IMG/VR virus record: IMGVR_UViG_3300008262_003210 | DNA: 64,000 nucleotides | Direction: 5' to 3' (one strand) | Origin: a virus | Taxonomy: Duplodnaviria > Caudoviricetes | In this document: piece after piece, positions 49,219 to 50,267 of the stretch | Numbering within the stretch: the stretch's first letter is position 1 | How the letters are laid out: each line of letters begins with the position of its first letter | Made by a program: the position numbers and the translations under genes | Notes under the pieces: generated by a model | Told to the model about the DNA's origin: nothing | The model's database searches: none | What the model saw: only the letters and a program-made list of their open reading frames with translations

Positions 49219-49434
49219 TTAAATCAACGGCATTTTAGTTTCTTTACTCATATCAATGTTTTCTTTTATCACAGTATACATTGCTGAGCGATCATCGTAG
49301 CTGTACTGATGTAACAGCTGATCTACAGTTACACCTCCCCGCATGTACCAACTGAGTCTCATCAACTCAGTTTTAAATTCTTTAATTTCGTTTTCTAGCC
49401 TAACTAGATATTCTTCAATACCGCCCGCAGACAA
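49219..49434 (-). CDS. gp51-like hub/tail assembly protein, probably made as a -1 frameshift extension of gp26
   Basis: LSWYMRGG..Y..D..motif; only a TTG start with no SD; the frame stays open back to the T TTT TTC site. Confidence 0.5.
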   Translation of the reverse strand: MSAGGIEEYLVRLENEIKEFKTELMRLSWYMRGGVTVDQLLHQYSYDDRSAMYTVIKENIDMSKETKMPLI

Positions 49435-49439
49435 TCCAA

Positions 49440-50267
49440 TTAGGCGCCTACGAAAAAATTTGATTGATCCAATTCTATTTTAATAGTGTCTTGATGGCCG
49501 CAACTGTCGCAAACAATAGATTTTTCAGGCGGTGTCCAACTGTCTTTCATTTTGTCTGCGTGACTATTAAGAGATTCTGTAACATGCACATCTGTGTTTG
49601 TTATCCATTCTTTAATGAATTGCGGATCTGTAACAATTTCAGATCCTATGCTTACACTTTCTATACCTGCACTTGCAATGTCTAATTTTAATAAAGTTAA
49701 ATCTTCTAATATATCTTTGTTTGTTTTAGCACGTTCGGCATCATCTAATATACTTTGTATTTGAATTACTTTTCTTTGTAGTTCAAAATTTCTAAGAGCA
49801 AAACTAGTTGATTGCTTGTAGGTCATGGGCCGTAATGTAACTGTTAGGTCGTGTACTTTAAAACTATTGTTGTAACGACATTGTGAATAAAATTCGATAA
49901 TATCTGACAAATTGATTGTATATGTGTTTTCTGCGCCGCAAGAAGAACACGCTCTTGTTGCTTCTAAAGTATTACCATAAGTGGCAATTCTAATAGCAGA
50001 CAGTAAAATATCCATATCTAACATGGAAATATCCCACGGATCTACAATATTAGGACAACAACTGGCAATAACTCTTGCAGTACTTTCTCCAGATAGCAGA
50101 GCATCGGCAGTTTTCAGCAGAATCTCGTCCATGCCAGTCATACCATAAATTGGTAATTTAGTAACATCACCTTCTATACTGCCTTTATGGTTATAAATTC
50201 CTTGACTAGGCAAACTGATAAAAATTTTAGGCTGTCTAAAATATTTTTGTAATGGGTTGGCAGACAT
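49440..50267 (-). CDS. gp26: baseplate hub assembly chaperone
   Basis: FRQPKIFISLPSQG, PIYGMTGMDEILLK, DMDILLSAIRIATYG; CSSC and CDSC Cys pairs; ends NFFVGA. Confidence 0.75.
   Translation of the reverse strand: MSANPLQKYFRQPKIFISLPSQGIYNHKGSIEGDVTKLPIYGMTGMDEILLKTADALLSGESTARVIASCCPNIVDPWDISMLDMDILLSAIRIATYGNTLEATRACSSCGAENTYTINLSDIIEFYSQCRYNNSFKVHDLTVTLRPMTYKQSTSFALRNFELQRKVIQIQSILDDAERAKTNKDILEDLTLLKLDIASAGIESVSIGSEIVTDPQFIKEWITNTDVHVTESLNSHADKMKDSWTPPEKSIVCDSCGHQDTIKIELDQSNFFVGA

Follow-up and report, generated by a model that had tools for sequence, protein, structure and literature searches.

The hub chaperone gene and its slippery site

The window analysed here is a 64,000-nucleotide stretch of phage DNA (Duplodnaviria; Caudoviricetes; IMG/VR record IMGVR_UViG_3300008262_003210), and all positions refer to this whole stretch. 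On its minus strand it carries a gene for a baseplate-hub assembly chaperone resembling T4 gp26 (49440..50267), whose zero-frame product is a short form of 275 amino acids. Near the 3′ end of this gene a slippery heptamer, U UUU UUC (49452..49458, minus strand), leads into a -1 frame extension of 77 codons plus stop (49219..49452, minus strand) that is open in relatives and shows a coding pattern. The sequence comparisons described below make it very probable that a programmed -1 frameshift on T TTT TTC yields both a short and a long hub chaperone in this uncultured freshwater giant phage related to T4. A preliminary description made from the sequence alone had proposed such a frameshift joining the gp26-like gene to the downstream open reading frame (ORF), and the proposal is strongly supported by a heptamer that is conserved and a -1 frame that is open in every relative.

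The 275-residue hub protein matches the Pfam family PF12322 (T4_baseplate) with 49.6 bits against a cutoff of 24.5 (E-value 5.3e-13), residues 61-271 covering profile positions 43-217 of 219, and it also matches the PHROGs family phrog_150, 'baseplate hub' (E-value 5.9e-16). The protein contains two CxxC knuckles, CSSC at residues 107-110 (C107 and C110) and CDSC at residues 252-255 (C252 and C255). C107 is invariant in the A3 set, and all four cysteines are invariant in the natural long forms introduced below. A blastn search of the locus against GenBank phages returned nothing, relatives being detectable at the protein level only.

Read off the minus strand, the last codons of the hub ORF are AAT TTT TTC GTA GGC GCC TAA, which give a C-terminus of ...LDQSNFFVGA* and place the zero-frame stop at 49442-49440. 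The heptamer at 49458-49452 lies in X XXY YYZ register with the zero frame, as in a -1 frameshift cassette, and comprises the third base of codon 270 and codons 271 and 272. From the heptamer the -1 frame reads FF-RRRLIGLSAGG... and remains open until a TAA at 49221-49219, and with 77 codons past the two Phe codons the fusion has a length of 272 + 77 = 349 amino acids. In the window, the only codon close to the 5′ end of the extension that could serve as a start is a TTG at codon 7, which has no Shine-Dalgarno motif. Direct reading of the sequence thus bears out the preliminary description in its account of the in-register T TTT TTC at the end of the gp26-like gene, the open -1 frame with a fusion of about 349 amino acids, and a downstream ORF with only a TTG start and no Shine-Dalgarno motif. 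A metatranscriptome contig (X20) covers 49227-49464 without an insertion or deletion and stops 6 nucleotides beyond the heptamer; it may be DNA-derived, it falls 31 nucleotides short of bridging the slip site, and contigs are in any case unable to reveal rare variants.

Conservation of the heptamer

Both the heptamer and the open -1 frame, seen at first in the window, recur in its homologues. The closest cultured relatives are giant myoviruses with 28-32% identity, comprising Atu_ph07, the PBECO4/121Q group, the PA5oct-like Paride, and XacN1. In Atu_ph07, PBECO4, Paride and XacN1 the heptamer is situated 1-10 codons ahead of the stop, and the -1 frame is open for 71-79 codons. T TTT TTC is present in 80/80 IMG/VR loci of the window clade (41-71% identity), and the extension is exactly 77 codons long in every complete locus of this clade. 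The loci of the cyanophage type show the arrangement in 78 of 80 cases, the remaining two being cut off just past the gene. When counted as unique genes, all 60 of the window clade and all 73 of the cyanophage clade carry T TTT TTC. Elsewhere in window-clade genes TTC accounts for just 19% of Phe codons, and given x-F-F and the codon usage of the genes themselves, an expectation of about 0.10 per independent lineage is obtained for the exact heptamer. Against this expectation of roughly 10%, the 60/60 and 73/73 heptamers are more than chance would produce.

Ten cultured phages with 23-32% identity retain a T TTT TTY/G heptamer. The form T TTT TTC is found in Atu_ph07, PBECO4, Paride, P-SSM2, OLIVR6, phiW-14 and AsFcp_1, including a GC-rich carrier (phiW-14) and a member of the Straboviridae (AsFcp_1), and the form T TTT TTT is found in XacN1 and Melnitz, the latter reading T TTT TTT TAA. 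RL2RES has T TTT TTG, for which the zero-frame peptide is F-L, indicating that the nucleotides rather than the amino acids are conserved. The arrangement spans cyanophages, giant Rak2-like, Atu_ph07-like and PA5oct-like phages, and the lineages of phiW-14, OLIVR6, RL2RES and AsFcp_1. In three of the IMG/VR relatives (L077, L078 and L080) the last eight hub codons include T TTT TTC followed one codon on by A AAA AAG, and these tandem zero-frame heptamers both feed the same -1 ORF.

The -1 frame extension

Length and divergence of the extension were computed over all 77 codons of 58 unique complete window-clade sequences. In the window clade the extension is conserved from the first codon after the heptamer, with a mean column identity of 67% and invariant residues R3, K29, W37, R40, G41 and N67. 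Pairwise nucleotide divergence in the -1 frame is 0.37, 0.21 and 0.56 at codon positions 1, 2 and 3, respectively, and codons 3-30 alone show the same order of 3 > 1 > 2 (0.43, 0.28 and 0.56). The other two frames contain 3-15 stops per sequence.

Signals for independent initiation are rare at the start of the extension. No ATG, GTG or TTG occurs within the first 30 extension codons at 32 of 62 unique loci, a motif resembling a Shine-Dalgarno sequence is found near the extension start only once among the 62, and automatic gene callers have delineated extension ORFs of 41 to 98 amino acids with at least half a dozen differing N-termini. As start codons are missing and the early codons are conserved, independent initiation cannot explain the N-terminal third of the extension, and the -1 ORF has the character expected within a frameshift cassette, i.e., conserved and coding with no initiation signal of its own. 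The extension on its own matches no family in Pfam or PHROGs, and the homologous small ORFs carry no precomputed Pfam domain. A plus-strand ORF of 318 amino acids (48262-49218), which has no family match, converges on the extension stop-to-stop with no spacer or terminator between the two (49216-49221).

A covarying stem downstream of the heptamer

A 12-bp stem with a 24-nucleotide loop follows the heptamer in the window, with a minimum free energy of -23.7 kcal/mol and a z-score of -3.15. Its 5′ arm, GCCUAAUUGGAU (49434..49445, minus strand), begins 6 nucleotides past the heptamer and includes the zero-frame stop codon, and its 3′ arm, AUCUAGUUAGGC (49398..49409, minus strand), codes for the L-V-R-L of the extension. 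The support for this stem was obtained only by naming it and counting its pairs in alignments, and not from RNAalifold. Across 44 aligned sequences, pairing is found in 81% of cells as compared to 70% in shuffled alignments, none of 500 of which reach the observed value, and 18-52% when the arms are slid. The covariation score is 0.384 versus 0.209 for shuffled and at most 0.16 for slid arms. Nine of the 12 stem pairs show changes on both sides, and at least 10 of the 12 pairs can form in 40 of the 58 unique sequences. The zero-frame stop itself takes part in this pattern, as its change from TAA to TGA is matched by a change from UUAGG to UCAGG in three relatives (L027, L042 and L049). With its 6-nucleotide spacer, the stem lies within the 5-9 nucleotides downstream at which a stimulatory structure is expected, and it is likely to be the stimulator of the frameshift, as judged from its position and covariation.

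The preliminary description had pointed to other elements as the stimulator, namely the palindrome TAGGCGCCTA, which is present at 49450-49441 in the window, and a GUAGGC/GUCUGC stem. Neither is conserved in relatives, and both give way to the covarying pair of GCCUAAUUGGAU and AUCUAGUUAGGC. No upstream stimulator resembling a Shine-Dalgarno sequence was seen at the window site. In the cyanophage clade a hairpin of its own is conserved 5-6 nucleotides downstream of the heptamer, enclosing the ATG that is annotated as the start of 'gp51', and other cultured relatives show stable predicted hairpins downstream.

Probable ribosomal frameshifting and its alternatives

Several observations weigh against a programmed ribosomal frameshift at this site. 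All of the support for slippage is comparative, and the U6 run could also permit transcriptional slippage leading to the same protein. About 18 of the 58 unique sequences, forming a divergent subclade, are without the stem, and RNAalifold applied to all 44 sequences gave no consensus structure. The -1 ORFs of cyanophages have an ATG about 3-4 codons after the slip site. The window extension aligns only weakly with the gp51 C-terminus and the cyanophage extension (E-value 0.002-0.14, probability 0.4-14%), the alignment being limited to an ...ER..I..IE motif. Finally, Pseudomonas phage Cygsa01 (L172, 1490-1690) has a gp26 gene with no heptamer (AGC ATT TTC ACC TAA), and its gp51-like ORF is still in the -1 frame with an ATG overlapping the stop (TAATG), from which it follows that other expression routes for the extension exist in the family. 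Its sequence suggests that Cygsa01 may have switched to termination-reinitiation.

Transcriptional slippage would involve the addition of an extra U by the polymerase in the U6 run, such that a minority of messenger RNAs (mRNAs) encode the 349-residue fusion in one frame. The site is indeed a homopolymer, which is longer in XacN1 (T7) and Melnitz (T8), and as the product would be identical to the ribosomal one, most of the comparisons do not discriminate between the two routes. A run of six U is, however, short beside those known to be prone to slippage, and the run has not been lengthened in the window and cyanophage clades, where the C that follows it is fixed in 133/133 unique genes. The covarying stem stands at the 6-nucleotide spacing that stimulators of ribosomal -1 shifts usually have, and RL2RES carries a classical ribosomal heptamer in its T TTT TTG, which together leave transcriptional slippage an unlikely source of the long form.

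Independent translation of the extension would instead make it a separate gene of about 71 amino acids, read from the TTG at codon 7 or by termination-reinitiation, with the heptamer as a by-product of a Phe-Phe pair. This would accord with the presence of that TTG in the window, with the cyanophage ORFs, which are annotated as 'gp51' genes in their own right and have an ATG soon after the site, and with the TAATG of Cygsa01, where the heptamer is absent. Half of the clade, however, has no start in the first 30 codons even though these are conserved and coding, there is no Shine-Dalgarno motif, the heptamer does not vary at its synonymous positions, the candidate ATG of the cyanophages sits within a conserved hairpin, and natural single-chain fusions of the two parts exist, so that independent translation is very improbable as the general explanation. 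That the heptamer and the open -1 frame coincide by chance, with the downstream ORF a decaying remnant that has no functional link to the hub gene, is hardly credible given that the extension is fixed at 77 codons in the 58 unique sequences with W37, R40, G41 and N67 invariant, is under purifying selection, and occurs in several phage families as well as in unassigned lineages. Programmed -1 ribosomal frameshifting is the reading preferred in what follows.

Long forms encoded in a single frame

Searching 1.84 billion representative proteins with a profile of the extension gave 308 matches. Among the best 150 of these 308 are 20 clusters of proteins of 319-351 amino acids that carry the extension at their extreme C-terminus. 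These 20 long forms consist of a gp26-like hub domain and the extension in one frame, joined at ...xFR... with a single Phe and no heptamer. A profile built from the long forms matches both window ORFs, the hub with an E-value of 3.3e-68 and the extension with one of 2.7e-22, and has no further match in the window.

The contigs encoding long forms have a PF12322 gene lacking the extension directly upstream. These short paralogs end in NFFTDNK* or NFLPDNQ* on a T TTT TTC or T TTT TTA, and their -1 frame is either closed or does not enter the downstream gene; by sequence, the heptamer of the upstream paralog looks like a relic of an ancestor that had the frameshift. Tandem PF12322 paralogs are seen at L176:411-2389 and L179:51-2051, where the upstream copy lacks all four cysteines and the extension and the downstream copy is an in-frame long form. 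As a long form and a short paralog stand side by side, some phages make both forms from tandem paralogs. A separate protein of 1435 amino acids (P0244) matches the extension profile over five separate stretches, the best at 1160-1215 with an E-value of 1.8e-10, and could be a repeat protein or reflect low-complexity helices.

Relation to T4 gp26 and gp51

The T4 proteins gp26 and gp51 are listed as chaperones of hub assembly (Leiman et al. 2010, PMC3004832, Table 2), and gp51, though needed for assembly, does not form part of the virion (Leiman et al. 2010, PMC3004832). Some GenBank records name both proteins 'tape measure protein assembly chaperone'. Both gp26 (208 amino acids) and gp51 (249 amino acids) match PF12322 over their full length. 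The phrog_150 profile covers gp51 to position 280 of 282, whereas its match to gp26 and to the window protein ends at about position 235. Judged by these profile matches, gp51 is a long paralog of gp26 that differs from it by a C-terminal extension. A second and newer Pfam family, PF28602.1, is carried by all full-length gp51 homologs and is absent from truncated ones, and probably models this extension.

The cyanophage extension matches the gp51 C-terminus in hhalign with a probability of 96.9% (E-value 1.7e-10), and the cyanophage fusion matches the whole of gp51 with 99.3% (E-value 2.7e-20), aligned to the last residues. This similarity explains the 'gp51' labels given to short ORFs located after gp26 in cyanophages and other phages. 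The window extension matches the gp51 tail weakly, with an E-value of 0.002-0.006 and a probability of 6-14% over the ER..I..IE motif only, and its homology to that tail is probable from context and from position, as it shares both its place in the protein and the slip site. The downstream ORF had been called gp51-like at the outset, a label that is apt insofar as the ORF corresponds to the C-terminal extension that distinguishes gp51, and misleading insofar as it is not a whole gp51.

In T4 the gp26 gene ends in ...KEFFELL*, encoded by GAG TTC TTT GAG, which is not slippery, and is followed by gene 25, in agreement with the initial remark that T4 itself is not known to use the frameshift. RB49, Stupor and 60AhydR15PP are also without the heptamer, and the annotated records of Stupor and 60AhydR15PP place a separate gene 51 just upstream of gp26. 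With a separate gene 51 and no heptamer, T4, RB49, Stupor and 60AhydR15PP form a fitting negative control.

Predicted structures

The short form of the window is modelled by AlphaFold2 with a predicted local distance difference test (pLDDT) score of 87 and a predicted template modelling (pTM) score of 0.81, residues 269-275, including the terminal FFVGA, being disordered. A natural long form, folded in place of the window fusion, gave a pLDDT of 89.4 and a pTM of 0.82, and its extension is predicted to form four helices over residues 271-345, one of which is 30 residues long. The predicted viral structures nearest to the natural long form belong to T4-like proteins named 'baseplate hub assembly', which come from many groups of myoviruses, with a best E-value of 2.5e-14.

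Among solved structures, the hub core has no PDB sequence match, and Foldseek against PDB returned nothing at E <= 0.001, so that the structural search put forward at the outset brought out no likeness to tail assembly chaperones there. VIA-align of the hub model recovered only a generic helical hairpin with a Z of about 8, and the window proteins match none of the Pfam families of tail assembly chaperones at E <= 0.01.

Genomic neighbourhood

Upstream of the hub gene, a plus-strand gene for a protein of 681 amino acids (50331..52376) is divergently transcribed, and a T4-type portal gene (52386-54119, plus strand) follows it. The 681-residue protein has no match in Pfam or PHROGs and no BLASTP similarity to T4 gp29. 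A language-model feature search places it with tape-measure families at scores of 0.89-0.90, which makes its identity as the tape measure only a lead. The hub gene had been described as adjacent to the tape measure gene, and it does adjoin this candidate, which is transcribed divergently and is named as a tape measure by language-model features only. The syntenic protein of PBECO4 is annotated as 'virion structural protein', and RL2RES, OLIVR6 and Melnitz each encode a large unannotated protein two genes downstream with no functional match. The large downstream proteins of P-SSM2 and RL2RES match no functional family in PHROGs.

The hub gene and the 681-residue gene are separated by a divergent intergenic region of 63 nucleotides. 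The sequence TATAAATA (50299..50306, minus strand) is located 32-39 nucleotides upstream of the hub ATG and is taken here to be a putative T4-type late-promoter core, and an ATAAATA is present on the plus strand at 50280-50286, upstream of the 681-residue gene. The two elements look like back-to-back late promoter cores of the T4 type. Just upstream of the region are a SegE-type GIY-YIG nuclease (PF19835, E-value 1.4e-33) and a DUF6071 protein, at 47363-47800 and 46583-47341, respectively, and a gp46-like SbcC at 44561-46339.

Proposed mechanism and implications

In the proposed mechanism, most ribosomes would terminate at the UAA at 49442-49440 and release the 275-residue short form, and a fraction would pause on U UUU UUC, held by the 12-bp stem located 6 nucleotides downstream. 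The two Phe transfer RNAs would then re-pair one base back, and translation would continue in the -1 frame for 77 codons to give a long form of 349 amino acids with a helical C-terminal domain. By homology to T4 gp26 and gp51, both forms may cooperate in building the complex of baseplate hub and tape measure. One and the same partner would be bound by the short form and by the long form's core, and the helical extension would add a second contact, by analogy with the G and GT proteins of lambda. The comparisons above establish the anatomy of the site and its conservation, the coding signature of the -1 frame, the covariation of the stem and the existence of natural single-chain long forms, from which the occurrence of slippage, its rate and the function of both forms are inferred.

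Chaperone pairs coupled by a frameshift are characteristic of long-tailed phages, and to our knowledge the T4 group has been treated as having no such pair. A literature search, with subscription journals outside it, found no description of this gp26/gp51 frameshift, and none of the annotated GenBank records examined marks it. A 2016 review of recoding includes no case from a T4-like phage, a cyanophage or a baseplate gene (Atkins et al. 2016, PMC5009743).

A broader interpretation, which we advance tentatively and would not yet favour over its denial, is that gp26/gp51 is the T4-lineage counterpart of lambda G/GT. The form with one gene and a -1 frameshift would be widespread, perhaps even ancestral, the many short 'gp51' ORFs annotated in its carriers would be the second half of a recoded gene, and in the classical T-even phages a gene duplication would have taken the place of the frameshift. 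Coating of the tape measure or hub core would fall to the short form, and the helical extension of the long form would recruit the next partner, at a ratio set by the efficiency of slippage. If the frameshift itself is real, hundreds of deposited genomes, including those of cyanophages and jumbo phages, would need 'gp26' and the stub 'gp51' merged as one recoded gene, and the poorly understood gp26 and gp51 of T4 would gain a testable model in which one core acts with and without an extension. It would also mean that there are three interchangeable routes to two forms in a set ratio, i.e., a frameshift, tandem paralogs and dispersed paralogs.

Comparison with known systems

The tau/gamma frameshift of E. 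coli dnaX resembles the window site in combining a heptamer with a stem-loop at short spacing, and in giving two forms in a set ratio. It differs in that the shifted frame of dnaX stops at once and the shifted product is the shorter one, and in that dnaX has an upstream stimulator resembling a Shine-Dalgarno sequence. The E and E+E′ proteins of phage P2 are a case of tail chaperone frameshifting in a myovirus, on T TTT TTG. P2 and the window share a contractile tail, a heptamer rich in U and a small tail assembly protein that is extended in the -1 frame, and differ in protein family.

In lambda, the tape measure is bound by G in many copies and by GT in a few, with the T portion binding the tube protein (Atkins et al. 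2016, PMC5009743). The -1 frameshift of tail assembly chaperone genes is conserved (Levin et al. 1993; Xu, Hendrix and Duda 2004, summarised in PMC5009743). The window protein differs from gpG/gpGT in being about twice as large and in having knuckles resembling a zinc ribbon, with no similarity in sequence or fold detected between the two, and its gene is neither directly upstream of the candidate tape measure nor co-oriented with it. The two systems are alike in a -1 slip on X XXY YYZ close to the 3′ end of a gene for a tail chaperone that is not part of the virion, in a tail and tape-measure neighbourhood, and in a major short form accompanied by a minor, C-terminally extended one, which for the window is deduced from comparative evidence. 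Of the link to lambda G/GT drawn in the preliminary description, the shared logic stands, and no homology or fold match to the tail assembly chaperones was found in the Pfam, PDB, Foldseek and VIA-align comparisons.

T4 reaches its two forms by a different arrangement, with two divergently transcribed paralogous genes and no heptamer, whereas in the window one gene with a probable -1 frameshift would supply both, and the extension of 77 amino acids in the window compares with about 48 in gp51. The window protein nevertheless belongs to the same PF12322 family as gp26 and gp51, and in both phages the short and long forms differ by an extension that follows the conserved ...FF/F... motif.

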